From a virus, in IMG/VR virus record IMGVR_UViG_3300025646_000024, positions 1 to 64,000 of that record: a DNA stretch of 64,000 bases; one strand, 5' to 3'. Made by a program: the position numbers and the translations under genes. Below are positions 1 through 13,938 of the stretch, piece after piece. Under the pieces are notes generated by a model that saw only the letters and a list, made by a program, of their open reading frames with translations, made no database searches and was not told where the DNA came from. Each line of letters begins with the position of its first letter. Position 1 is the first letter of the stretch.

Positions 1-52
1 TTTGGTCGTACTCAATTAGATGTGAGTGGTTTTGATGTTGAAGAGATGACCG

Positions 53-1125
53 ATGAAGACAAAGAAGAATGGAAGGACTTCTGGGAGAATGACGATGACT
101 GAACGAGCACAAGAACTACGAGAGATTATCCGTCAGGCACTCTACCGAACTCCTATGACCGAAGAGTGTGAAGTTCCTATTACCGCTTCTGCTTTGAGGT
201 ATGTTGCTGACCGACTCTATACTGACTGGGGAGAACTTCAACACCCAGCATCAGTCATTCATGATATTGCTAATGAATTGGAGGATGATGAACTATGACT
301 GATTATTATGATTTTTTTGTTCCAGAGAACAAGTTTATTGTTCCTGTGACTGTTCTTCTTTCTAATGCTGACCAAGTAAAACTACGAAAGTTCATCAACC
401 TCCATTATCTTGGTGATGAGGATGCTAATGAGTTTGTAGATGGAACTTACAAAGCAAAGTATCCAGAGAAAGAAACCACAGAGTTTCAGAATGCAGTATG
501 GAAAACTAATGTTGGTTATACAGTAAATCTTGCTGTAGAGTTTGATGAGAAAGGTGTCCCTACATTTGAGGTTGTGAAAAATGAATAATCAAGAAGAAAT
601 AGGATGGGCATTACCAGTAGGATTTGTCATCATTAATATTATTGCTATTATTCTTGCTTTAACAGGAAATCTACCAGACGGAGTTTGATTGTGGTTGAGA
701 AAATTAAGTTTGTTAGTGTAACACGCACTATTTGTCCTAAAACAGGAATTCATTATTTGGATGCCATCGGGGAGGATGGTTTCCATTATATGGCACAAAT
801 GGTTCATAATATCAATAGTGATGAACCCTGGTTATTGTACAAGAAAGTGTGGTATAAAGACCCTCAACACCCCTACGATATTTGATGGAGAAACCAAATG
901 AAATTTAATAATGAAGCACTGATTGCTCTGTGTATTATGTCTGGATTTACTCTTATCCTTGCTACCATATTTTCTGGGCTTTCTACTGAAGCACAAAAAC
1001 AAAGTTTGTATCAGAAAACCTACGACAAATCTATGGAATGTCGTATTACTTTCAAAGGTAGAAGTCCAACAGAAGTAAATTCTTATTGTGGTGAAATTCC
1101 TAAACTTGAGGATTTTTTGAAGTAG
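53..1125 (+). CDS. Run of short hypothetical phage proteins (ORFs 53-298, 295-588, 685-885, 898-1125)
   Basis: Abutting or overlapping + strand ORFs with no recognisable motif; some ORF-track starts are probably too far upstream. Confidence 0.6.
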
Positions 1126-1133
1126 TATAAATA
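1126..1133 (+). promoter_or_regulatory. T4-type late promoter TATAAATA, putatively driving a small RNA
   Basis: Exact TATAAATA directly after the stop of 898-1125. Confidence 0.75.
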
Positions 1134-1137
1134 CTAA

Positions 1138-1198
1138 TGTCTGTTGGTACTGCAATTCTCTACAGACAAGATTAGGTGCTCTTTTGGGCACCTTTTCT
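1138..1198 (+). ncRNA. Putative ~60-nt small RNA (hairpin plus terminator), antisense to the leader of the downstream HNH gene
   Basis: Stem TGTCTGT(1138-44)/ACAGACA(1162-68); terminator-like hairpin AGGTGCTC-TTTT-GGGCACCT(1174-93) plus T-run; 1140-1154 is complementary to 1213-1227. Confidence 0.55.
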
Positions 1199-1200
1199 AT

Positions 1201-1208
1201 TATAAATA
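1201..1208 (+). promoter_or_regulatory. T4-type late promoter TATAAATA of the HNH endonuclease
   Basis: Exact consensus ending 25 nt before ATG 1234. Confidence 0.8.
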
Positions 1209-1233
1209 ATAATGCAGTACCAATAGAATATAA

Positions 1234-1944
1234 ATGAACTATCTAAAGATATATTGTAACCTTATAAGGAAAGCAGAGAACAGAACTCCTCCTGAAGGTT
1301 ATACAGAAAAACACCATACATTTCCAGTAAGTATCTTTGGAAAAAATAATAGAATTGTAGTGCTTACGGCAAGAGAACATTATGTTGCACACGCACTATT
1401 GGAAAAAATTTGTATTCAAAGATATGGATTGCATCATTATAGAACTAAAAAAATGAATAACGCACATATAATGATAAAATCTAGTGGTTATTGTAACTCT
1501 TATCTATACGAAACTGCTAAAATTAGAAGAAGTGAAAATATGAGGAGAAATCTTCATAGATTAGGTACGAGGCATACAGAAGAAACCAAAAAAATATTAA
1601 GTGAAAAACATAAAGGCAAAACTCATTCAAAAGAAAGTAATGAAAGTAGAAGCAAAAAACTGACAGGAAAAAATAATCATAACTATGGAAAAAGGTGGTG
1701 GAACGATGGAAATGGAAATGAAGTTTTCTCTATTGATTGCCCCCAAAACTGGATTCCTGGTCGCAATGAAGAGGCAAAGAAAATAAGCACAGAAACAAAT
1801 ATAGGTAGAAAATGGTGGAATGATGGCAATGGTAATACTAAATTTTGTAGAGAGTGTCCTGGGAACGGATGGGTCCCTGGAGTGAGTGAAGAAAGAAGAA
1901 AAAATATAAGTAAATCAATGAAAAATTTATCTAAAAAAACTTGA
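1234..1944 (+). CDS. Free-standing HNH homing endonuclease with NUMOD3-like DNA-binding repeats
   Basis: EKHHTFP...N.VVLTAREHYVAH HNH core; HTEETKKILS and HSKES motifs; duplicated G(K/R)(R/K)WWNDGNGN repeat. Confidence 0.85.
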   Translation: MNYLKIYCNLIRKAENRTPPEGYTEKHHTFPVSIFGKNNRIVVLTAREHYVAHALLEKICIQRYGLHHYRTKKMNNAHIMIKSSGYCNSYLYETAKIRRSENMRRNLHRLGTRHTEETKKILSEKHKGKTHSKESNESRSKKLTGKNNHNYGKRWWNDGNGNEVFSIDCPQNWIPGRNEEAKKISTETNIGRKWWNDGNGNTKFCRECPGNGWVPGVSEERRKNISKSMKNLSKKT

Positions 1945-1963
1945 ATGGAAATAATATGTTGCT

Positions 1964-2019
1964 CCACTTTGTAAACTGTCACACTAGCACTTGCGGGTTT
2001 CTTCCTAATCCGTTATGAT
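1964..2019 (+). promoter_or_regulatory. Sigma70-type promoter with upstream box A
   Basis: CCACTTTGTAAACTGTCACA (1964-83), TTGCGG (1991-96), 17 bp, TATGAT (2014-19); the next gene probably starts at ATG 2042. Confidence 0.7.
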
Positions 2020-2041
2020 ACTCCTATCTACAAGAAACATT

Positions 2042-5000
2042 ATGCGTTTGACCGCACACGAACTCGCAGTTATTATTGATACACTCAACCATTCTCTAAT
2101 GGTATCAAACTGGAATGGATATTATACTGCCCAATCAAGGGAAAATGTAAGGAATACGATTGCTGTGATTATGAATGAAATGAGTGTAGAGATTATCACA
2201 GACAAACCAAACTTCACTATTGATGCTGACGCAGGTATTTAAAATGACTGACATAAAACTCTGTAAGGATTGTAAGCACTACAAGAAAGATTGGTATGCT
2301 CGTATCACTGGATATGGAGACACATTTGATATTTGCGTCAATCCTCATTTGATTGCTGTAAATCCTGTGAGTGGAAAGACCAAAGGTGATTTTTGTGATA
2401 CAATGAGAAAGTATCACGGATGTGGTATGGAAGGTAAGTATTGGGAGGCACGAAAATGAGCAAATCTGAAACATTCCTCATTATCTCACAGATTTATTGT
2501 GTAGGTGATCTTATTGTTGAAGGTAAAAAAACATTTTTATATGGTGTGGGATGAAAGAACTTGAAATAGGTTCTAAATGGAAACATAAGACCTCAAATGA
2601 TGTTTATGTTGTGAAAGAACAGTATTCTCATAGAGTAGTGTTAGAGCACGAACTTACTGGTGAAACTGTAAAACTAACTGTGGGACATTTTAACCCTCAA
2701 GGTTTTGATGAGTATGAGTATTATGAAACTAACTAAACTAATCTTTGATTATAAGTGGTATTATTTGAGGACACTTGAAGAACTGGCACAGGGAGACCCC
2801 ACAAGGTCTCCTATTGCCTTATAATACTCTCGTACACACAAAGGAACATTTTATGGACGATTGGATGCTTGAGTTACGAACTGTTGAGTTAGAGAAGGAT
2901 GTTATATGTGAGACAACTTATCGTAAAATTATTTCCCACGACAACTTTGATTACGATGAACACCTCGTTGATGACAAAATTAGGATGAATTATTTCTGAT
3001 GACTAAAACACAGGTGTTTCAAATTTCTTGGTTTATCATGAAATATGGATTTTTAATTTATGTTTCTTGTCTTTTACTGAACTTGGGTGTCATTATTCCA
3101 TCAATTCTTATTTGGGGTTTTGTTTTTGTTGATTTGGGGTATGAATTTTTAAGAATGGTTGAGTATTATCAACCAACAAACCGTGAGAAAGTAAAATGAC
3201 TGAATACCTGAAACTACGCTAATGCCATTCTTTCCTGATTGCTATGACGAATGGGGTCTTTATAAGATTACCTACGATGGAGACCACAAGATGTATGAAA
3301 TGCTATTTGAGGGCACGGAAGAAGAGTGCCGTGAGTATGCTTATGAGAACTACACAGATAAGGAGCAAGGTGAAATGTGCCTGATGGATTATGAAGCAAG
3401 GGAATGGGATGTATGACTAAAGACGAACTCAAGAATTTTGATCCATCAACCGTACAATACTACCAAGTAGCATACAAATGTAACTTTGCCACAGATCCAC
3501 AAGAGTATCGCACACAAAATCATGGTACAATGAGTATGGCACTTGCTTCTGCTCACTTGCTTCATGCACGAGGACAGTTCACTATTATCTCTGTAACACC
3601 AATCTACAAATGACTGAACGCAACTTTAAAAAAGAACTTTCTCACTCCGTCTATTATGATATGGAGAATGGGAATGATAGTGAAACAATTGATTATGATT
3701 GTCTGATTGCTATTATTACTGAATTGTGTGATAGAATAGAACAGTTGGAGAAGGACAACGAACTTCTGAAATCTTATGCTTGGGAACAATGACTGAGCAC
3801 AATTTACCAGATAAAGATGATGCTCCGTGGTTGGATACAACCTATGATGGTTTTATGACCCATGGGGAAATGTTAGAAGTTGCTGCTCAACGAGAAGCAG
3901 AAAACAAAGCACTTGAAGCATTAGACAAACTCCATGAGGAAAATGGTGAAGGTATGAAACAACTTGCCGAACACGAAAGGATCAAAGTCATTCAAACTGC
4001 TTGTGGTGCCATTGACAAATATTCTGATGCACTTAAAGCACTTGCTGAAACTGAAAAGGTAGAGTTGCGAGCAGAATTGGAAGCAAAGAAGAAAGAAAAC
4101 TTTCAGCTGGTTGCTGATGCTTGTATGGTAGAATATGAACAGAAGTATCAGCGTGATGTATTCCCAGTGGATGAATACTGGGTGTATATGATTTCTGAAT
4201 ACTTTGGCACAGGTGAAGGTCAAACTACCTGTATTATGATGACACAGGCAACACCATATGGTGATGACTTCACAGAAGAAAATCGCTATGTGCCTATCAA
4301 CTCTAAGCAGTATCGTGCTGTAAGGGAGTTTCACAAACAGTTTGGCACTTGGTATCTCCATGGTCTGAAGTTCCTCAGTAAAGAAGATTTCTTTGCTGAA
4401 TGTTCATATTACATCCCACCTGTGATGATGAAACTCTCTAATAAGAGTTGCTTCAAAGATTTCTACACCCGTGTTCATTACAATTTCTCATGACAAAAAT
4501 CAAATTCAGCGGTCACTCCAAAACAGAACGTGAAGTCGAATTCACTCAAGCAGATAAACATCGTCTGTTTGAACTGATGAAAGAAGAATTCATCGATCAC
4601 ATCACATACTCCAGGTTCAGTAACATCTATCATCCCACAAAAACTGAAAAACAAATCATGGAATTATGTAAAGATTTCGACGTTGATGTAGCATATGATA
4701 AAGATCGTGTAGCATTTTTTACTGAAGTAATTAACAACATGGAGAATACTTATGGATAAAGAACTTTACAACCCTGATGAGTTTCTGCTTGACAACATCA
4801 AATCATTTCACTACGAGGTGATGGATGAAGGTGAGCATGTATGGATGGCATTCTATTTTGAGAATGGTAACACTGGGCACTTGAATATCTTCCGAAACTG
4901 TGGTAAGATTAACACACGCTATGAGGAATGGGTAAATGACGTACAAACTAAATGAGGAAGCAACAGCATTTTCATATACTCGTGAAGAACTCTTTGAGTG

Positions 5001-5459
5001 TATCACTAGAATCGTAGCACATCCACATAAGACCATCACAGAACACGACCAATCCCGTGCTCTTGCCATCATGGTAGTGTTTGACGACTATTTCACCAAT
5101 TATACTCAAAGTGATAATAATGGTGGGCATTGTGTTTATGAATGTGATGCTATGGACTTTATTGATTTTGTGAGGTTTAAACTTGGTATCAGTGATTATG
5201 ATGCTGTTGATGTTGATGAGGTTTTGAAATGAAACCAACTGAAGCTGGATTTGATGGAGAAAAGGGTGTGAACCTTAATATGTCACATCTACCCGATGGA
5301 GGAATATATAAACTGCGACGTGGCTCTACTCCTCCATGGACATTCAAGGCTAATTTTAAAAATCAGTTAATGTGGCAAGAAATAATACCACCTAGACTTT
5401 TATATTGTAACTCAGATAACCAGTGGTTTGAACTAGATTTTATTCCTATAGAAACATGA
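2042..5459 (+). CDS. Cluster of about 13 short hypothetical proteins (incl. Cys-rich ORF ending 2459 and 237-aa 3780-4493)
   Basis: Tightly packed + strand ORFs, many with ATGA stop/start overlaps; no function recognisable. Confidence 0.6.
2771..2825 (+). promoter_or_regulatory. Promoter with box A and TATAAT -10
   Basis: ACACTTGAAGAACTGGCACA (2771-90), hairpin GGAGACC/GGTCTCC over the -35 zone, TATAAT (2820-25); gene likely starts at ATG 2853. Confidence 0.7.
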
Positions 5460-5809
5460 TTCCTCTCATAAACAAGTGGATAATCGGATTTAAACCGATT
5501 AAGTATACTCCTTTCTGGTATTGGTATCGTCTATTATGTCATCAGGGGTATCGTCTTGATGACAGACATTTGTATGCAGACTTCTGGTATGAATTGAACT
5601 ATGGTTGGTGGACTATGGAGTATGATGCTTTCATCAATGGCCCAGGTACAGAAGAAGCTATGATGGGTATAAGTTCTCCTGATGACCTTCCAGAGACCAT
5701 CTACTTGACAGAAGAAGCTTTTGACTCTATGATGGAGAAGATCAATAATCCAGATCCACCCACACCATTTCTACGACAACTATTATCTCGACCTGCACCC
5801 TGGAATTAA
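5456..5809 (+). CDS. Hypothetical protein with DUF1778/TacA-antitoxin-like C-terminus
   Basis: C-terminal IYLTEEAFDSMMEKINNPDPPTPFLRQLL resembles the I.L..E.F..F...L.NPP.P...L..L tail of DUF1778 antitoxins. Confidence 0.45.
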   Translation: MIPLINKWIIGFKPIKYTPFWYWYRLLCHQGYRLDDRHLYADFWYELNYGWWTMEYDAFINGPGTEEAMMGISSPDDLPETIYLTEEAFDSMMEKINNPDPPTPFLRQLLSRPAPWN

Positions 5810-5813
5810 AATT

Positions 5814-6237
5814 ATGAAACTTACAAAAACACACTTTTGCCTTCCTGAATTTTATACAGCAGATGATGAATCTCCCAACTATAAAGAAGAGTATTTGAAA
5901 AATTGTGAAGAACATGTAATTGCAGTAGCAAAATCTTGTTATTTGATTTCAGATACTACGATTGGCAGTGATTTACTTGATGAATTTGAACACATTTCTG
6001 AACTGAAAAGTATCATTCACGACCTAGGTAAGTACATTGGTAAGAGGTTCTATGAAAGTTAAAACCCGTGTTATTTTAGAACAAGCAATTGAGGAAGGCG
6101 TGAATCGTGGTTGGCGTCTTGCTCACAAATATACAGAAAATCCTGAAGAACATGTAATCATTGACCGTATCAATGATGCAGTAATGGCTCAAATCTACGA
6201 ATACTTTTCTTTTGAAGATGAACTACACATTTCCTGA
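5814..6237 (+). CDS. Two short hypothetical proteins (5814-6062 and about 6052-6237)
   Basis: Overlapping ORFs leading into the RNA ligase. Confidence 0.6.
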
Positions 6238-7381
6238 AATTACTCACCTTGATAATGTGATCCCTCACATTGAGGATCGTCCTGAGTTCAAAGTGATGGA
6301 CAAAGGTTGGTACACTGTTATCAACTACATGGTTGCATTTGGGGATACATTCTCACTCATTCGTGAACGTTCTCATTACAATATGTGGGTGCGTCGTGAA
6401 TGTCGTGGTCTTATCTTTGATAATGCAACTGGCCAACTTATTTCTCGGCCATATCACAAGTTCTTCAATGTAGGTGAACGAGAAGAAACTCAGATTGACA
6501 AACTAAATCTGAGTGCTTCACATATAGTTCTGGAGAAGTTGGATGGTTCGATGATTCGCCCCATTCCAACTCCAGAAGGATTCCGTCTTGGCACAAAGGC
6601 AGGTATCACTGATGTCGCAATGAATGCAGAAGTATTCATTGGAGATAAACCACAATACAATACTTTCATTCTTGCAATGATTGAAGGTGGTATGACTCCT
6701 ATTTTTGAGTGGGTTTCAAGAAAAAATCGTATTGTAGTTGATTATCCAAAGGACCAGCTGATTCTCACTGGCATTCGCAATCTTGTAAAGGGTAACTATC
6801 TACCATACTTTAACATGGTAGAACTTGCAGTACATTATGATATTCCTTATGTGAAAGCATTTTCTGGAAGTGTACCTATTGATGAAGATTTAATCAATGC
6901 AATACGTGCATGGGATGATGGTGAGGGTGTAGTGATTCGCTTTGATAATGGTCATATGGTCAAAGTCAAAGCTGATGAATATATTCTTCGACATCGCTCT
7001 AAAGAACAAATCAACTCAGAAAAGAATATCATTCAGGTTATTCTGAATGATACAGTGGATGATATGATTCCACTGCTCACAGAAGATGATGCAACTCGTC
7101 TACGAAAGTTCCAGTCTGAGTTCTGGAGTGCAGTTGATGAAGTGGCACAAGACCTTACCAGCATCTTTGAAGGTGGTGATAAGATGTATCCAGACAAGAA
7201 GGAGTTTGCCGTTGAGTTTGTAAACCGAATGCTTCTGCCCATTCATCGCCCATTCATGTTTGGCATGAAGCAGGGTAAAGAATGTAAACAACTCTTGATT
7301 GATTCAATCGAAAAGTCTCTCACTTCTCAAACCAAACTAAACGATTCACGCTGGATGTTCGGAGGTATTTCATGGAACTGA
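6218..7381 (+). CDS. rnlA: RNA ligase 1 (T4 Rnl1 family)
   Basis: RECRGLIFD and SRPYHKFFN Rnl1 signatures; adenylation motif EKLDGS; EGVV (motif IV); KVK (motif V); ATG 6218 preferred to TTG 6212. Confidence 0.92.
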   Translation: MNYTFPEITHLDNVIPHIEDRPEFKVMDKGWYTVINYMVAFGDTFSLIRERSHYNMWVRRECRGLIFDNATGQLISRPYHKFFNVGEREETQIDKLNLSASHIVLEKLDGSMIRPIPTPEGFRLGTKAGITDVAMNAEVFIGDKPQYNTFILAMIEGGMTPIFEWVSRKNRIVVDYPKDQLILTGIRNLVKGNYLPYFNMVELAVHYDIPYVKAFSGSVPIDEDLINAIRAWDDGEGVVIRFDNGHMVKVKADEYILRHRSKEQINSEKNIIQVILNDTVDDMIPLLTEDDATRLRKFQSEFWSAVDEVAQDLTSIFEGGDKMYPDKKEFAVEFVNRMLLPIHRPFMFGMKQGKECKQLLIDSIEKSLTSQTKLNDSRWMFGGISWN

Positions 7382-7872
7382 TTATGATGTGTGGCATTCC
7401 TTGTGCTGGCAAATCGAGCTACATTCGCAGGGGAACTGAAAACACTGATGTGTTTGATGAATATGTAATCCTATCTACAGATGATTACATTGAAGAGTAT
7501 GCCAAAGCAAATGGCAAGACTTACAATGAAGTCTTTGATGATGTCATTGGTGAAGCTACCACACGCATGTATCAAGACCTTGAGCTTGCAATCCAGCGAG
7601 GCAAATCTATTATCTGGGATCAGACTAATGTATCAAAGAAGTCTCGTATGAAGAAACTAAAGAAGATTCCTGATACTTATACTAAGACTGCAGTAGTTCT
7701 TCCTATTACTCTAGAGGAAGCTATTATTCGCAATTCTCAACGAGCAAACAAGTTTATTGCACGTTCTGTATTATCTCGTATGTATCATCAATTTGAAATT
7801 CCAACTGAAGATGAAGGTTTTGATGTTATCATGACTCATGATGGATCGCATCTTAAACTGCAGGTAGCCTGA
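7372..7872 (+). CDS. P-loop kinase (AAA_33; equivalent to the 5'-kinase half of T4 PNK/PseT)
   Basis: GIPCAGKS Walker A, ILSTDD, IIWDQTN, RNSQR lid motif. Confidence 0.85.
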   Translation: MELIMMCGIPCAGKSSYIRRGTENTDVFDEYVILSTDDYIEEYAKANGKTYNEVFDDVIGEATTRMYQDLELAIQRGKSIIWDQTNVSKKSRMKKLKKIPDTYTKTAVVLPITLEEAIIRNSQRANKFIARSVLSRMYHQFEIPTEDEGFDVIMTHDGSHLKLQVA

Positions 7873-8252
7873 TGATTTCTGACTCGGTGTTTGACCAGGC
7901 TATTGCAACTGCAAAGTCTTCTCCATCTAAAAAGCAAGTTGGTGCTCTTCTATTGAGGAGAAATAAAATTATTACAACTGCAGTTAATCTTGAAACTAAG
8001 TCTCATCCACTCCAAGCTAAGTTTGCTGAACGAGTAGGACTTTGGCAAAAAATATATTTACATAGTGAGATTCATGCATTAATTAAATGTAAAGAACCCG
8101 TAGATACTATTGTCGTTGCAAGAGTAAATCCTCAAAATAAATTACGAAATGCAAAACCATGTCCTATATGTTCACTTGCTATCGAAGAATCGGGCATTAA
8201 CCACATATATTATTCAACTGATGATGGATTTATGTACAAATACAAAGCATAA
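7872..8252 (+). CDS. Zn-dependent cytidine/deoxycytidylate deaminase-fold protein
   Basis: VGA, HSE and PCPIC zinc-binding motifs. Confidence 0.85.
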   Translation: MISDSVFDQAIATAKSSPSKKQVGALLLRRNKIITTAVNLETKSHPLQAKFAERVGLWQKIYLHSEIHALIKCKEPVDTIVVARVNPQNKLRNAKPCPICSLAIEESGINHIYYSTDDGFMYKYKA

Positions 8253-8259
8253 ATATAAA

Positions 8260-8314
8260 TGCCTGAGTTGGGTGCAATCTTCGCAGGTAAAGAAGGAGCT
8301 TTATGCTCCTTCTT
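8260..8314 (+). ncRNA. Putative ~55-nt small RNA antisense to the leader of the downstream GIY-YIG gene
   Basis: CATAAATA (8248-55) upstream; stem TGCCTG(8260-65)/CAGGTA(8284-89); hairpin AAGAAGGAGC/GCTCCTTCTT (8290-8314); 8264-8276 is complementary to 8331-8343. Confidence 0.55.
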
Positions 8315-8318
8315 CTAG

Positions 8319-8326
8319 TATAAATA
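8319..8326 (+). promoter_or_regulatory. T4-type late promoter TATAAATA of the GIY-YIG endonuclease
   Basis: Exact consensus ending 26 nt before ATG 8353. Confidence 0.8.
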
Positions 8327-8352
8327 TTACTGCACCCAACTTAAGAGCAGTT

Positions 8353-9042
8353 ATGTATTCTCCAAGAATATACACATATAAAATTACCTTTGAAGAGGTT
8401 CCGTACTACTATTATGGAATGCATGAAGAAAAGGTATATGATGAACCATATTGGGGTTCCCCAGTAACAAATAAATGGTGCTGGAATTTTTATACGCCAA
8501 AGAAACAAATATTGGAAGTATTTTCTACTAGAGAAGATGCATATAAAGTAGAAATGCGATTAATCAAATCAGTTTTAAATGTTGATAAATGGTGCCTCAA
8601 TATGAATTGTGGAGGGATTATTTCTCGTGAAATTTATGTTAAAACTGGTACAATGACTTATGAACTTGGGATAGGAATACATGCACAATCACCAAAGGAG
8701 CGCAAAGAGGTAGCAAAACTTGGAGGTAAAATGTCTAAATCTTTGGGAGTAGGTGTGCATGGCAGAACAGATAGTCAGATGACTTTAGATGCAAAAAAAT
8801 CTGTAGAAACTCATCGAAAAAACAATACAGGATGTTTTGATTCAAACCATTCGTTGCAAAGAAAAGGAGGAATCATTCAAGGAAAAAAGAATGTTTCAAA
8901 TGGACATTTGCAACAATTATCAAAATTAAAATATATTTGTTTAGAAACTGGATTTATATCAAGTGCCAGAGGATTATCTGTATATCAAAAAAATAGAGGA
9001 ATTTGTACTACCAAAAGAAAGCTATTAGATATGCCAATATAA
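8353..9042 (+). CDS. Free-standing GIY-YIG (Seg-like) homing endonuclease
   Basis: YTYKIT...YYYGMH...YWGS, AYKVE, CLN catalytic-domain pattern; true start ATG 8353 rather than 8149, because the extension crosses two promoters and a terminator. Confidence 0.75.
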   Translation: MYSPRIYTYKITFEEVPYYYYGMHEEKVYDEPYWGSPVTNKWCWNFYTPKKQILEVFSTREDAYKVEMRLIKSVLNVDKWCLNMNCGGIISREIYVKTGTMTYELGIGIHAQSPKERKEVAKLGGKMSKSLGVGVHGRTDSQMTLDAKKSVETHRKNNTGCFDSNHSLQRKGGIIQGKKNVSNGHLQQLSKLKYICLETGFISSARGLSVYQKNRGICTTKRKLLDMPI

Positions 9043-9089
9043 TATCTGTCTATTGAATACTTGACACGCCCATGAATATATGCTATGAT
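9034..9089 (+). promoter_or_regulatory. Sigma70-type promoter with degenerate box A
   Basis: TTGACA (9061-66), 17 bp, TATGAT (9084-89); CCAATATAATATCTGTC upstream. Confidence 0.75.
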
Positions 9090-9114
9090 GCTATTTGATA
9101 TCAACTCACAAATC

Positions 9115-9588
9115 ATGGATTCCTCTACGAATACTCATAAACTTAAGTGCATCATTTTCGACCTTGATGGCACTCTATGCGATGTGACACATCGTAGACA
9201 ATTTGTTGCAACTAAGCCTCGTAACTGGGATGCATGGAACAAAGGAATCATCAATGATAACCCTGTAGAACAAGTTCTTGCAATGTTCAATGCATTGAAG
9301 TATTTGTATCCTATATTTTTCGTGAGTGGCCGCTCTGATGATTACCGTGATGTAACTGTAGAATGGCTTGAGAAACATGGTATCACACCATATGATCATA
9401 ATGGCTTGTATATGAGAAAGTATCAAGATCATCGTGATGATGCTATCGTCAAAGCAGAGATTGCTGATGAGATCGAGAAACAGTATCAAATCTTTGCAGT
9501 CTTTGATGATCGGAAGCGGGTATTGACAATGTGGCAGCAGCGTGGTATATTTACTTTTGATGTCTCCCAAGGTAAAGGTGATTTCTGA
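9115..9588 (+). CDS. HAD-family phosphatase (equivalent to the 3'-phosphatase half of T4 PNK/PseT)
   Basis: DLDGT, VSGR, MRK..DHRDD, FDDR motifs; start moved to ATG 9115 because 9085 lies in the -10 box. Confidence 0.88.
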   Translation: MDSSTNTHKLKCIIFDLDGTLCDVTHRRQFVATKPRNWDAWNKGIINDNPVEQVLAMFNALKYLYPIFFVSGRSDDYRDVTVEWLEKHGITPYDHNGLYMRKYQDHRDDAIVKAEIADEIEKQYQIFAVFDDRKRVLTMWQQRGIFTFDVSQGKGDF

Positions 9589-11050
9589 TGGGACTATTTG
9601 ACCGAGTTCGTTGTTCATATCCAATCAACGAACACTTCAATAATAACATGCTCCAAACTAAAGGACTATCAAATTCTTTAGCTGAATACTGGATTAGTCC
9701 TGCAGGAGAGTTATTTGAGATTGATGATTATGAAGCTGCAGATTTTGTGGAAGTTGATGATGAAGACCTGCGACCATGGGAGAAATTTCAGTGGGTTCCT
9801 AATGGAAATCATGGTAAAGTCAAGCCAGTATATATCACTGATTGCATAGAGGTCTATCCAGAGCAGAATCCAAATGCAAAATGGGAATGCTGGCCACGAT
9901 GCAGTATATGCTTTAAATTAGGTAAGATTACACACGTTGAAATACTTAGATGAGTGAATTTCCATACGAGGGGTTTCCATACAGGCTAGAATACACTGAT
10001 GGAAAGGATGAAAAAATTTGTTGGTTTATGTGCGAAGAGCATCTTCAAAAATATATTGATAGATACAAACCAACAAATGCAAGTATTCAAACAATCAAAC
10101 AAAACCAGAAGAAACAACAACTTTTCTCTGATCTAGACACATTCTTTACACCAGATGAAACACCTGTGGCACCTGTGGGCACTCGCACTCGGAGAAAAAG
10201 CTCACAAAAAAGATCAAGTAGCTGATAAGGTTGCCATTGTGCGTACCCTTATTTTCACTACATATCTTATACCAAACTGCTTTATTGTTGCTGGTGTTAT
10301 TCGACACTGGAATGATAGAGAAATTAACGTTGAGGTTGAAATCTATGAAAATTCAAACTATGCAGAAAAGCTTTACTCAGAAAGACGGGACTATCTGGGA
10401 ATGGACGGAGACACCCGAATTGAGGGAGTATATTCGTCAGGCACAATCAAGAACCGCACTGGAGAATTTGAATGAAGGACCAAAACGAGCATCCTGAAAT
10501 TGCAGAGGTTGATTGGATTGATGACACATTCCGTGTTGAAGAATCTCGCTGGAAAACTTGGAAGAGTTTTCATAAGAATGGGGACTCACTTATTACTTCT
10601 CTCACAAGGGAATCTTGCATCTCTGCAACCAGATTCATCCTCAAAGGTAGACAAGAAGGTTTTTCAGAAAGTAAACTTTACGAAGGGGTGGTAGGTGGAA
10701 AACTCTAACGATGTTCCAGTCCACGTACTGGACCCAACGACTCCCTGGTACGAGTTTCTGTCCTATACTGAATGCTGTTGGAGCCTGAAGCCGCCAGGCC
10801 ACCCATCACTCACACGATTCATGCGGTATCATGATTATCTCAAAGAGGTTGGTCTCAAATGAATGAATTCACAATTACTTCAGGCACAGCAAACAAATAC
10901 ACAGACGCAGAACTTGATGCAATGTGTCTGTATTCAGAGAATCTGGAATTGAAACGACAGCTCCAGATTCTTGAAGAACAAAATCTAAAACTCAAGAATG
11001 AACTTCTTGAACTCTCTGCACAAATGGAAGGTATGATTTATGAAGACTGA
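9588..11050 (+). CDS. Cluster of short hypothetical proteins (9588-9953, 9950-10225, 10155-10475, about 10345-10497, 10472-10708, 10695-10862, 10859-11050)
   Basis: Overlapping + strand ORFs; 10695-10862 (GTG start, 55 aa) is below the ORF-track cutoff. Confidence 0.6.
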
Positions 11051-11450
11051 TCGCAATGGTTTTATTGACCCTGCTGCTATTCTGATTGTTGGTGGCATCG
11101 CTGTTATTGGTGCTGTCCTATTCATCGGTGGTCCTATCTACGGGGTGTGGCAGCAATCTCTTGCTGGTAAAGCAGAACTGCAAAAGGCAGAATATACTCG
11201 TCAGGTAGCAGTGCTTGAAGCACAAGCAAAGATGGATTCTGCACAGAAACTAGCTGAAGCAGAGATTATTCGTGCTGGTGGTGTTGCAAAAGCAAACCAG
11301 ATTATTGGTGATTCGCTGAAAGATAATCGTGAGTATCTTCAGTATCTGTATATCACTGGCATTGAAGAAGGCTCACAGAAAGGTAATGTAACCATCTACG
11401 TACCAACAGAAGGCGGAATGCCAGTTCCAACACTTCAAATGAATAAGTGA
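11040..11450 (+). CDS. Membrane-anchored coiled-coil protein resembling the C-terminal part of SPFH/band-7 proteins
   Basis: N-terminal hydrophobic helix then AEAEIIRAGGVAKANQII...YLQYLYI...IYVPT. Confidence 0.6.
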   Translation: MKTDRNGFIDPAAILIVGGIAVIGAVLFIGGPIYGVWQQSLAGKAELQKAEYTRQVAVLEAQAKMDSAQKLAEAEIIRAGGVAKANQIIGDSLKDNREYLQYLYITGIEEGSQKGNVTIYVPTEGGMPVPTLQMNK

Positions 11451-11456
11451 TTCTGT

Positions 11457-11479
11457 GGGGGCTACAAGCCCCCTTTTTT
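11457..11479 (+). terminator. Rho-independent terminator
   Basis: GGGGGCT-ACA-AGCCCCC followed by T6. Confidence 0.85.
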
Positions 11480-11486
11480 ATAAATA
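11479..11486 (+). promoter_or_regulatory. T4-type late promoter TATAAATA
   Basis: Exact consensus ending 22 nt before ATG 11509. Confidence 0.85.
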
Positions 11487-11508
11487 CTTAAAAATAATCA
11501 GCTGATCA

Positions 11509-12150
11509 ATGTACGAAATAATCAGAGAAAAAGACGAAGTAGAAATTGGCTCTAAGACTGGTGGGTTAGTTCCAAAGAAAAAAAGAAGTCCAGCTAATCA
11601 ATATAAGTATGAAAAAGAAAGAAGAGAAAATTTAAAGAAGAAACCAGGAATGACTGGTGATAGTCCATTGATTCAAGCACTTCGTAGAAGAGCACAAGTC
11701 ACTGGAAACTATGCAGAAAGCAAATCGTATTCTCAGTTCCTTGAAGAAGCATTTAAGAGAACAGGTAAAACAATAGGTTTCAAGGTATTTCATCATGGAT
11801 CTGATGCAGACTCAGTTAAAAGCATAAAGAAAGGTGGACCCAAACCATCACCAAAGGGAAGTGAAGGTCCAGGGCATTATGTTACTCCAGATAAAAAGAA
11901 AGCAGACAAATATGCAGAGTTTACTTCTAAACAGAGAAAGAAAAAGCCAGCAACAGTATCATACAGAGTACCAAGCAAAAGAGTAGCTAAAACAGATACT
12001 ATTCCAAAGGGACTGACATCACAGCAAAGAACAACAAAGGAAAAGCCAGTCATTCAAAATACTAGAACTGGTCATGTTGCCATGGATGCAGATTATGCAA
12101 ATTCAAAAATGATACGTAATCCATCACCAACTATTCGTAAAAGAAAGTAA
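11509..12150 (+). CDS. Basic late protein with internal capsid-targeting-like motif and ADP-ribosyltransferase-like domain
   Basis: SKSYSQFLEEA, then VFHHGS...SIKKGG...GPGHYVT....A.KYA (H-G-S/T, G-x-Y, A..YA pattern of H-Y-type ARTs). Confidence 0.6.
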   Translation: MYEIIREKDEVEIGSKTGGLVPKKKRSPANQYKYEKERRENLKKKPGMTGDSPLIQALRRRAQVTGNYAESKSYSQFLEEAFKRTGKTIGFKVFHHGSDADSVKSIKKGGPKPSPKGSEGPGHYVTPDKKKADKYAEFTSKQRKKKPATVSYRVPSKRVAKTDTIPKGLTSQQRTTKEKPVIQNTRTGHVAMDADYANSKMIRNPSPTIRKRK

Positions 12151-13938
12151 ATGGCTTTAGAAAAATGGGATTTAGGCAAAGAGCTTATGCAATGTCTTGC
12201 ATTTGCTCATTTTGCTGTATATAAGTATTCTAAAAGGACAGAAGATGAACATGAACAATTATTCTATGATTTGTTTGATCCAGATATAGCTATTGATACA
12301 AAACCATATAAAAAGCATCTGGGCGAAAACTTTCAATTCACTAGAGTGTTTGAAAACTGGCCAACCACACTCACACCTGCGACTGGAGAAAAGAGTGTCG
12401 ATATTGGAGTCAAAATAGTTTATGATGTAGCTAAAAATTTTTATCATAGAAATTTAATATCTAAAAACTTTCAGTTGTATCAATTTGTAGATCAGACAGA
12501 TCCATTCATGAAATTGATTAAAACTGAGTGTTTATCTAAAATAATAAAGGCAGCTAAATTGCCAATTAAAGAAGATGTATTGTCGAGTGCAGATATTTAC
12601 ATTGTGAAGATAGCAGAAAAAAACAAAATTGAAACTGAATTCACAAATGAAATACTGAGAAAATCTGATTTATATTTAATCAATAACTTTGATAAGTATA
12701 ATGAAATACTAGAAGCACATTGGACCAAACATTCTTTATTTGGAGTGTCGTTAAAACTTCCATCTACCAATGGGACAAAAAATATAAAAATAGTTGGAAA
12801 GAAAGATAATAAAATTGGAAAGAAAATGCTTAAGCATGTTGATCCATATAGTAAATTTATTGCTATGCTTTCTGATCCAAATGCAAACATTAACAAACTG
12901 ATAACTGAAACAGTAATATTTGATCACAATGGTATGGATATCAATAGAGTGGGGCAATGGAAATTTCCAGTAACTTTTAGATATAAAGAGTTGGGATTAT
13001 ATGAAAATGATGTGAAGTTTAATTTACTGGCATGGCCAAAAGCACAAAAAGATGGAGGGGGCACTGCAGGATTCAACGGACAATTTTTTGATACTCCTGG
13101 ATATAGTTCTCAGTGGGTGGGTGGAACTGGAGTCAAACCACTTGAGAATTTTCTGTTTAAATATCCAGAATTTAATAGAATTAATAATGAATTAATATCT
13201 ATTCGTAAAAAGGCATTAAATTATGCTCTATCTGGCAGTGTAAACAAATCAGTTAATTTAACCCAACAAATCAATACTGATATACAAGTAAATAAACCAA
13301 TTGGATCTGGCAAAACACCAGTCTATAGAAAATTAAAGAAGACCGATCCCAAGACTTCATATACTAAAGATGGCATGTATTCTAGAATGACTTATTTGAA
13401 GGGTCAGCAAGGGAAATATGATTACGGTGCCAATCCAACAAAAGATACTAAAAATTATAAAATGAAAATTAATAACTTGCAGACTTTATATTCCAGAGCA
13501 AAGCGAGATATATCAAAACCAGTATTTGTAGCTGGATCTGAGAGACAAAGTAGTTTAATTAAATTTATATCAGAATACGAATCTGCTACTGGGAGATCAA
13601 ATATATTAAATATCTATAGAACTGCAGTTGTAAATTTAATTTTAAAAAAAGAGCTACAGCATGGATTGAATAGAGATGATTCTGAAATTAAAACTCATTT
13701 TGAGAATGCTCAAATATCATATTTTTTAACTCGTGGTGGCCCAAATTTACATCTATACTTAAAGCAAAGAATATTCTTAACTGTATTTGGGGTTATTACA
13801 AAAAAATCATATAAAGTGTTCTTGAATAATATGACTGGAACTACACAAATGATTAGTGCAATTAAAGCACAAGTTATGAAAAGTATGATGAAAAATATAA
13901 AAGAGTTTGATACGGTACCACACTTCTACATGTCTTGA
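12151..13938 (+). CDS. 595-aa hypothetical protein, possible divergent PD-(D/E)XK-fold nuclease
   Basis: E.MQC...SADIYIV...GVSLK pattern; very AT-rich; directly follows 11509 under the late promoter. Confidence 0.4.
   Translation: MALEKWDLGKELMQCLAFAHFAVYKYSKRTEDEHEQLFYDLFDPDIAIDTKPYKKHLGENFQFTRVFENWPTTLTPATGEKSVDIGVKIVYDVAKNFYHRNLISKNFQLYQFVDQTDPFMKLIKTECLSKIIKAAKLPIKEDVLSSADIYIVKIAEKNKIETEFTNEILRKSDLYLINNFDKYNEILEAHWTKHSLFGVSLKLPSTNGTKNIKIVGKKDNKIGKKMLKHVDPYSKFIAMLSDPNANINKLITETVIFDHNGMDINRVGQWKFPVTFRYKELGLYENDVKFNLLAWPKAQKDGGGTAGFNGQFFDTPGYSSQWVGGTGVKPLENFLFKYPEFNRINNELISIRKKALNYALSGSVNKSVNLTQQINTDIQVNKPIGSGKTPVYRKLKKTDPKTSYTKDGMYSRMTYLKGQQGKYDYGANPTKDTKNYKMKINNLQTLYSRAKRDISKPVFVAGSERQSSLIKFISEYESATGRSNILNIYRTAVVNLILKKELQHGLNRDDSEIKTHFENAQISYFLTRGGPNLHLYLKQRIFLTVFGVITKKSYKVFLNNMTGTTQMISAIKAQVMKSMMKNIKEFDTVPHFYMS

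Follow-up and report, generated by a model that had tools for sequence, protein, structure and literature searches.

The 105 bases that precede a homing endonuclease gene (HEG) in an uncultured T4-like phage form a cassette that probably serves as a 5′ control region, masking the translation start in cis and thereby limiting translation of the endonuclease to mRNAs initiated at an internal late promoter (P2). The observation behind this reading lies far beyond chance, with a fold z-score of about −6 and strong covariation. The initial annotation had described the element as the second copy of a small-RNA/leader module in which each endonuclease is controlled by its own RNA, and this interpretation is partly supported by the analysis reported here.

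Genomic context and insertion of the cassette

The DNA that we analysed (the window, 64,000 nucleotides) comprises the initial 64 kb of a virus record in IMG/VR that is 80 kb long and has an estimated completeness of 44%. It is 92% coding. Among its genes is one for a T4-like gp6 baseplate protein, for which the closest relatives from cultured phages, at ~34% identity, come from cyanomyoviruses; we assign the source phage to the T4-type, cyanophage-like phages. A megablast search with positions 7000-10000 gave no match among phages, and no match was obtained by tblastn with the 1084-aa ORF.

An RNA-repair-type gene set occupies positions 6212-9588, where an Rnl1-like ligase gene is followed by kinase and phosphatase as separate genes (Table 1), and a deaminase-fold gene sits between the kinase and phosphatase genes, overlapping both. 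Four close relatives (L052-L055), with kinases 84-92% identical to that of the window phage, possess the kinase, deaminase and phosphatase genes and no endonuclease. In these relatives the 3′ end of the deaminase gene overlaps the 5′ end of the phosphatase gene directly and the whole insert segment is missing. Judged by this comparison, the cassette together with the HEG is an insertion between the overlapping deaminase and phosphatase genes. Since the kinase and the phosphatase are split in the HEG-less relatives as well, the endonuclease is not the cause of the split.

The insert is flanked on either side by a copy of the native overlap. The left-hand copy (~8205-8252) serves as the end of the deaminase gene and has diverged, while the right-hand copy was identified by alignment with L052, L054 and L055 and by tblastn (Table 1). 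Over the 27 positions 9115-9141 the right copy shows one difference from the relatives; in the left copy (8224-8252) there are several substitutions and a 3-nt insertion. The divergence of the left copy would fit the loss of an endonuclease recognition site. The sigma-70-type promoter found at the 3′ end of the insert is missing from the HEG-less relatives, whose two genes overlap, and its probable role is to re-establish early transcription of the phosphatase gene. As this promoter stands just ahead of ATG 9115, position 9085, where the listed ORF begins, is unlikely to serve as the start.

Table 1. Positions of genes and cassette elements in the window
Feature	Position	Strand	Details
Rnl1-type RNA ligase	6212-7381		
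P-loop kinase, polynucleotide-kinase-like	7372-7872		
Cytidine/dCMP deaminase-like gene, upstream of cassette	7872-8252	+	Pfam PF00383, E 4.5e-11
P1, late-promoter-type box CATAAATA	8248-8255	+	4 nt ahead of 5′ stem; predicted start ~G8261
5′ stem-loop, TGCCTG (8260-8265)/CAGGTA (8284-8289)	8260-8289	+	6 bp, one G:U; 18-nt loop
Anti-leader (5′ arm), contains hypervariable seed	8261-8276	+	Pairs with 8331-8349
10-bp hairpin, 8290-8299/8305-8314	8290-8314	+	At position of the cassette's intrinsic terminator; tail CTAGTATA
P2, consensus late promoter TATAAATA between arms	8319-8326	+	Predicted start ~G8332; 26 nt ahead of ATG
Leader (3′ arm), complementary to anti-leader	8331-8349	+	Runs into SD-like AAGAG 8343-8347
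Homing endonuclease gene, 229 aa	8353-9042	+	PHROG 314 'homing endonuclease', E 1.3e-12
Sigma-70-type promoter, TTGACA-17-TATGAT, TG extension	9061-9089	+	11/12 matches; 3′ end of insert
PNKP-type phosphatase	9085-9588 (listed ORF)		Start by homology ATG 9115
Right-hand copy of native deaminase/phosphatase overlap	9097-9141	+	Alignment with L052, L054, L055; tblastn
Copy 1 of cassette	1126-1236	+	Heads unrelated HEG 1234-1944 (PHROG 655)

The endonuclease gene and the non-coding nature of the cassette

The product of the inserted gene, labelled a GIY-YIG endonuclease in the initial annotation, showed no match to Pfam GIY-YIG, even at E up to 5, and no match to PDB with either the single sequence or a 29-sequence profile. 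Its N-terminal nuclease domain (residues 1-55) was modelled by AlphaFold2 with pLDDT of only 29-39. The invariant residues are R5, I6, Y7, Y18-20, G22, E67 and N83, and the N-terminal RIY...YYYG motif looks only GIY-YIG-like. A match in S-PM2 (ORF p181, adjoining F-CphI) was considered as a precedent and rejected, as that ORF overlaps its upstream gene and has no cassette; because p181 lacks the cassette, the CfrI antisense-RNA precedent is not transferable.

The frame of the endonuclease is open from 8149 to 9042, and the initial annotation had pointed out that translation from 8149 would turn the element into simple coding sequence; the endonuclease would then carry an extension at its N terminus. 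This alternative failed on several grounds, and we regard it as extremely improbable. An in-frame stop lies between P1 and the ATG in 101 of 105 related cassettes, homologues at 43-49% identity share the start Met at 8353, positions 8149-8252 are the 3′ end of the deaminase gene, read in another frame, and conservation in the cassette tracks base-pairing and not codons. We therefore place the true start of the endonuclease at ATG 8353 and not at 8149, and take the open frame from 8149 to be accidental and the cassette to be non-coding.

Organization of the two cassette copies

Read in order, copy 2 consists of P1, the 5′ stem-loop with the anti-leader, a hairpin, P2, the complementary leader, the SD-like AAGAG and ATG 8353 (Table 1). 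The elements that the initial annotation had described are present: the box overlapping the deaminase stop, with TAA 8250-8252 falling within CATAAATA at 8248-8255; the TGCCTG/CAGGTA stem; the 10-bp hairpin, with the proviso given below; TATAAATA at 8319-8326; and the complementarity of 8331-8343 to 8264-8276, which extends over 13 bp with one G:U. When the P1 RNA was folded alone, the 5′ stem-loop displayed the anti-leader in its loop and 5′ strand. The distance from P2 to the ATG resembles that of the late promoters of structural genes.

The motifs TGYCTG, GTTGG and TGCAAT are common to copy 1 (1126-1236), as had been proposed. The two copies are truly copies of one conserved module. Relatives of both window endonucleases have the same layout, and a covariance model (R1) matched both copies, with 111.7 bits for copy 1 and 81.8 bits for copy 2. 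The copies differ in the hairpin between the arms. At this place a GC-rich hairpin followed by a T-run is found in copy 1 and in most relatives, and the copy-1 hairpin (1174-1193) was called terminator-like; in contrast, the copy-2 hairpin has no proper T-run, is only weakly terminator-like and was not called as a terminator.

Within 8293-8323, the copy-2 hairpin also contains a strong AAGGAG, located 4 nt ahead of the ATG of a 6-codon mini-ORF (MLLLLV) whose stop codon, TAA, is provided by the P2 box. This mini-ORF is missing from relatives in which the hairpin has a different sequence, and thus it is probably a chance occurrence.

A third TATAAATA in the window is fused to a strong terminator (7-bp GC stem plus T6, 11457-11486) and stands 22 nt upstream of a 213-aa ORF (11509-12150), for which only weak ADP-ribosyltransferase-like and DUF3990 matches were obtained. 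The segment 11457-12150 was considered as a third copy of the cassette and rejected, being a late gene without anti-leader arms.

RNA fold, covariation and strand

Folding of positions 8240-8375 gave an MFE of −45.6 kcal/mol (z = −5.98), and none of 200 shuffled sequences was as stable. In this fold a long-range helix, 8255-8275 × 8332-8354, covers AAGAG and part of the AUG (−22 to approximately +2) and encloses the 10-bp hairpin and TATAAATA as well as the small stem-loop. When 95 related cassettes were aligned, 93% of the cells in the long-range arms and terminator hairpin were paired, compared with 79% in shuffles, and only 37-50% were paired when the partners were slid by 1-3 columns. The covariation score was 0.469 versus 0.196 for shuffled alignments, and none of 500 shuffles reached the observed value; the earlier statement that the seed changes along with its target thus held for the 95 cassettes. 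Each of the eight central seed columns showed 3-5 pair types, with 27-49 of 90 sequences changed on both sides.

The local stem is also subject to covariation, with double-sided changes at all 5 pairs among 90 distinct cassettes. An alternative partner for its 5′ strand is the SD-like portion of the leader, and in two loci (L037 and L004) all three strands of the local stem and leader were altered together. The terminator hairpin of the relatives was 99% paired. G:U pairs outnumbered A:C by 166 to 2 in the hairpin and by 87 to 48 in the arms. The large excess of G:U in the hairpin and the smaller one in the arms indicate an RNA read from the endonuclease (sense) strand. No minus-strand late-promoter box was present near either copy of the cassette, and an Rfam cmscan of positions 1-13000 of the window at E up to 1 returned only a chance snoRNA match elsewhere.

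Two late-promoter boxes

The heptamer ATAAATA is depleted in the genome, with 17 occurrences observed and 29.7 expected, and every shuffle contained at least 17. When N[AC]TAAATA was searched on the plus strand with the cassettes excluded, 12-13 of the 19 sites were located 20-40 nt upstream of ORF starts, and the ORFs behind these sites were mostly large structural genes. A further site lies directly upstream of the sole long minus-strand ORF. Cyanomyovirus late promoters have been reported as NATAAATA (PMC2984593). On the basis of its position before structural genes and of the literature, we identify N[AC]TAAATA as the late promoter of the window phage. The gp33 protein was not found in the 80-kb record, an absence that is uninformative as the record is itself only 44% complete.

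P2 corresponds to this motif, and so does P1. In a set of 99 cassettes picked by a pattern that left P1 out, the P1 box was found in 98, compared with 1.2% expected by chance, and it was situated 57-67 nt upstream of P2. Among 26 diverse cassettes 13 columns are invariant, and 12 of these belong to the TAAATA cores of P1 and P2; conservation of the two boxes is thus equally strong. The spacing between P1 and the stem equals that between P2 and the arm (N4-5) and is nearly free of indels, unlike other parts of the cassette. The forms taken by P1, namely AATAAATA, GATAAATA, ACTAAATA, TCTAAATA and CATAAATA, also occur ahead of structural genes in the window phage. The conservation of P1, its spacing from the stem and its match to the promoters of structural genes are new here.

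Probable cis masking of the translation start

The pairing, its covariation, the non-coding nature of the element, its insertion, the identity of the box with the late motif and the fact that P2 is flanked by the two arms are observations, and together with the T4 rule, by which late transcription starts ~6 nt downstream of the box, they allow us to infer where transcripts start and end and how translation responds. RNA arriving from the upstream early genes would carry the anti-leader 8261-8276 and would either end at the hairpin or read through it. On read-through the anti-leader is predicted to fold onto the leader 8331-8349, up to the AUG, and so to bury the ribosome-binding region. The late polymerase, by contrast, would start ~6 nt past TATAAATA (8319-8326), so that the 5′ end of its mRNA coincides with the first base of the 3′ arm; lacking the anti-leader, this mRNA should be translatable.

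Modelling of the two transcripts agreed with this scheme. The two-arm read-through RNA had an MFE of −47.8 kcal/mol and the P2 transcript one of −7.9 kcal/mol, and the long-range helix was formed in the former only. When 80 nt of upstream coding RNA were included, the modelled probability of being unpaired in the SD-like region was 0.73, so that masking is partial there. In copy 2, whose hairpin has no T-run, read-through and hence cis masking are likely. Three features of T4-type masking hairpins, namely a helix over SD and AUG, a late promoter that excludes the 5′ strand and a HEG downstream, were found in the sequence, and a fourth, early repression and late release of translation, is predicted.

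Several observations stand against cis masking as the full account. It gives no role to P1, although this box is invariant, takes the forms of structural-gene promoters and lies at a fixed distance from the stem, and none to the covarying local stem, which would begin at the predicted +1; the presence of the full 3′ arm on the P2 RNA is likewise unexplained. In addition, with a good terminator between the arms in most relatives, foldable read-through RNAs may be a minority.

Distribution of the cassette and orthogonality of the seeds

We collected 167 unique cassettes with 88 distinct 12-nt arms, from uncultured T4-like phages and from cultured Synechococcus phages. With the covariance model, S-SRM01 yielded six copies, B23 three and the window record two, and the commonest terminator plus P2 pattern alone retrieved at least 119 further stretches. 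The layout shared by the IMG/VR contigs, S-SRM01 and B23 is box, N4-5, seed stem-loop, hairpin, TATAAATA, N4, seed complement and ATG. Of 94 unique, independently collected cassettes, 93 pair at −18 kcal/mol or better. The 8-nt central seed is hypervariable with compensation, in 88 variants, and the cassettes head at least 5-6 unrelated HEG families, told apart by their N-termini.

The initial annotation inferred that the two pairs in the window are orthogonal and predicted that cognate interactions would be clearly stronger than crossed ones. In cofolding, the cognate ddG was −17.5 kcal/mol for copy 1 and −16.4 kcal/mol for copy 2, whereas the crossed combinations gave −2.9 and −1.6 kcal/mol; across 26 cassettes the mean ddG was −16.0 for cognate and −3.8 for crossed pairs. 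The two pairs are therefore orthogonal in silico. The further proposal that each endonuclease has its own RNA agrees with what we found within the window genome but does not extend to the population, where 19 of the 88 arms recur in front of at least two unrelated HEG families; seeds are thus not tied to particular endonucleases. When seeds resident in the same genome were compared, 0 of 59 pairs were identical versus 0.53 expected, a difference with no statistical weight.

At some loci up to five cassettes were found within 12 kb. One of these, L122 (IMGVR_UViG_3300007735_000887), has five cassette-headed endonuclease-like genes with five different seeds at ~2.2-12.1 kb and constitutes a dense homing-endonuclease island. 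A chimera was detected at positions 304-408 of locus L019, where a 5′ arm of S-SRM01 type is combined with a 3′ arm and leader of L021 type; its arms are unpaired (−6.4 kcal/mol), and no orphan anti-leader was found elsewhere in the L019 locus. The mismatched arms indicate that cassettes recombine within the conserved terminator/P2 segment, and mismatched recombinants of this kind arise but are rare. In L043 and L047, relatives of the copy-1 endonuclease are preceded not by the twin-promoter cassette but by a simple short hairpin whose loop contains TATAAATA, as is classical for T4.

Possible roles of P1

The features that cis masking leaves aside could be accounted for if P1 were an active late promoter. 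It would then give rise to an RNA of ~55-60 nt, composed of the 5′ stem-loop with the seed and of the terminator hairpin, that binds the 5′ end of the P2 mRNA in trans and lowers late translation of the endonuclease; the 8-nt seed would set the specificity, and the effect would add to the cis mask and not replace it. We give this possibility not quite an even chance. The invariance of P1 in cassettes gathered without it, its spacing and forms, the local stem, the terminator and the target retained in its entirety on the P2 mRNA together make up the anatomy of a small-RNA gene, in which the RNA's own promoter is represented, at the level of sequence, by P1. The late motif is otherwise purged from the genome, so that a retained copy is probably active. 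The predicted ~57-nt RNA folds as a stem-loop plus terminator with a mean probability of 0.60 of being unpaired in the seed, the excess of G:U places the terminator hairpin on the sense strand, and the binding of cognate partners is far stronger in silico than that of crossed ones.

The pairing itself does not establish a separate small RNA, since the documented cis mechanism fully explains the complementarity (PMC2988022) and accounts for all of the pairing evidence equally well. The copy-2 hairpin is not terminator-like, seeds are common to unrelated HEG families, and the distinctness of co-resident seeds is not significant. The prior is also modest, as a 2010 review records no trans-acting sRNA characterised in T4-type phages (PMC3014915). 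A late ~57-nt P1 RNA acting in trans on the neighbouring mRNA would represent a family of trans-acting regulatory RNAs, the first in T4-type phages, with at least 88 seed-programmed orthogonal pairs travelling with HEGs and setting their dose, possibly also between co-infecting genomes; we put this forward tentatively, with the balance leaning somewhat against it.

P1 might also be functional in other ways: by providing late read-through of the masked HEG into downstream genes, by protection of the mRNA 5′ end from RNase E, or as a recombination or junction sequence that doubles as the stop codon of the upstream gene. In copy 2 the upstream gene ends with a stop codon inside P1, and at the insertion junction the box can be aligned with TCCTAAAC of the native sequence. 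Together with their spacers, P1 and P2 constitute a direct repeat of 13-14 nt, and a published account (PMC3113571) describes an antisense RNA guarding mRNA from RNase E in cyanophage infection. However, in copy 1 the upstream stop (TAG 1123-1125) is outside the box, so that supply of a stop codon is not general, and a role in junction formation or recombination leaves the invariance of six bases and the fixed spacing from the stem unexplained. A duplex that ends 5-10 nt ahead of the AUG more probably hinders ribosomes than assists them. We consider such roles unlikely.

Relation to known systems

A helix that masks the RBS, combined with an internal late promoter, has been documented for I-TevI, I-TevII, I-TevIII, segB and Aeh1 mobE (PMC2988022; PMC3014915). 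As in these T4-type HEG hairpins, the helix of the cassette is predicted to bury the ribosome-binding region of the HEG on upstream transcripts, and TATAAATA is placed such that late RNA would lack the 5′ strand, which predicts late-only translation here. Unlike them, the cassette has a long-range helix with ~55 nt between its arms, which closes a three-way structure holding a second stem-loop and a terminator-type hairpin. Its late RNA would retain the whole 3′ arm, a second and equally conserved late box stands ahead of the 5′ arm, 8 nucleotides are hypervariable with compensation, and the cassette is common to at least 5-6 HEG families.

IS10 RNA-OUT/RNA-IN and hok/sok are systems in which short structured antisense RNAs limit the genes of selfish elements. 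If P1 fires, the cassette would resemble them in having a stem-loop RNA with its own promoter that pairs with the start of a selfish mRNA, and in concentrating specificity in a short loop or seed. The IS10 and hok/sok RNAs are transcribed from the strand opposite the target, whereas the cassette RNA is predicted to come from the same strand, upstream, with its complementarity arising from an inverted repeat.

Dassa et al. (2009) described environmental, cyanophage-like free-standing HEGs of metagenomic 'fractured genes', of which 15 out of 16 had hairpins in the 5′ UTR; 10 of those hairpins carry TATAAATA, and two complementary motifs were reported (PMC2677866). Compared by way of their description in the text, these hairpins are probably the same cassette or a sister of it (PMC2677866). 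The passages describing them present a translational hairpin only; neither a promoter box upstream of it nor a terminator within it is mentioned, nor are a separate RNA and variability of the seed (PMC2677866).

HEGs need to be expressed enough to spread and not so much as to harm the phage. The T4 arrangement of hairpin and late promoter, until now seen as individual cases, appears here as one portable, standardised cassette, present with at least 5-6 unrelated endonuclease families in well over 100 uncultured phages and in cultured cyanophages. If P1 fires, the cassette would in addition encode a small RNA dedicated to restraining selfish nucleases, and regulators of this type have so far not been characterised in T4-type phages; the natural seed variants of the cassette would then offer a ready set of orthogonal RNA switches.
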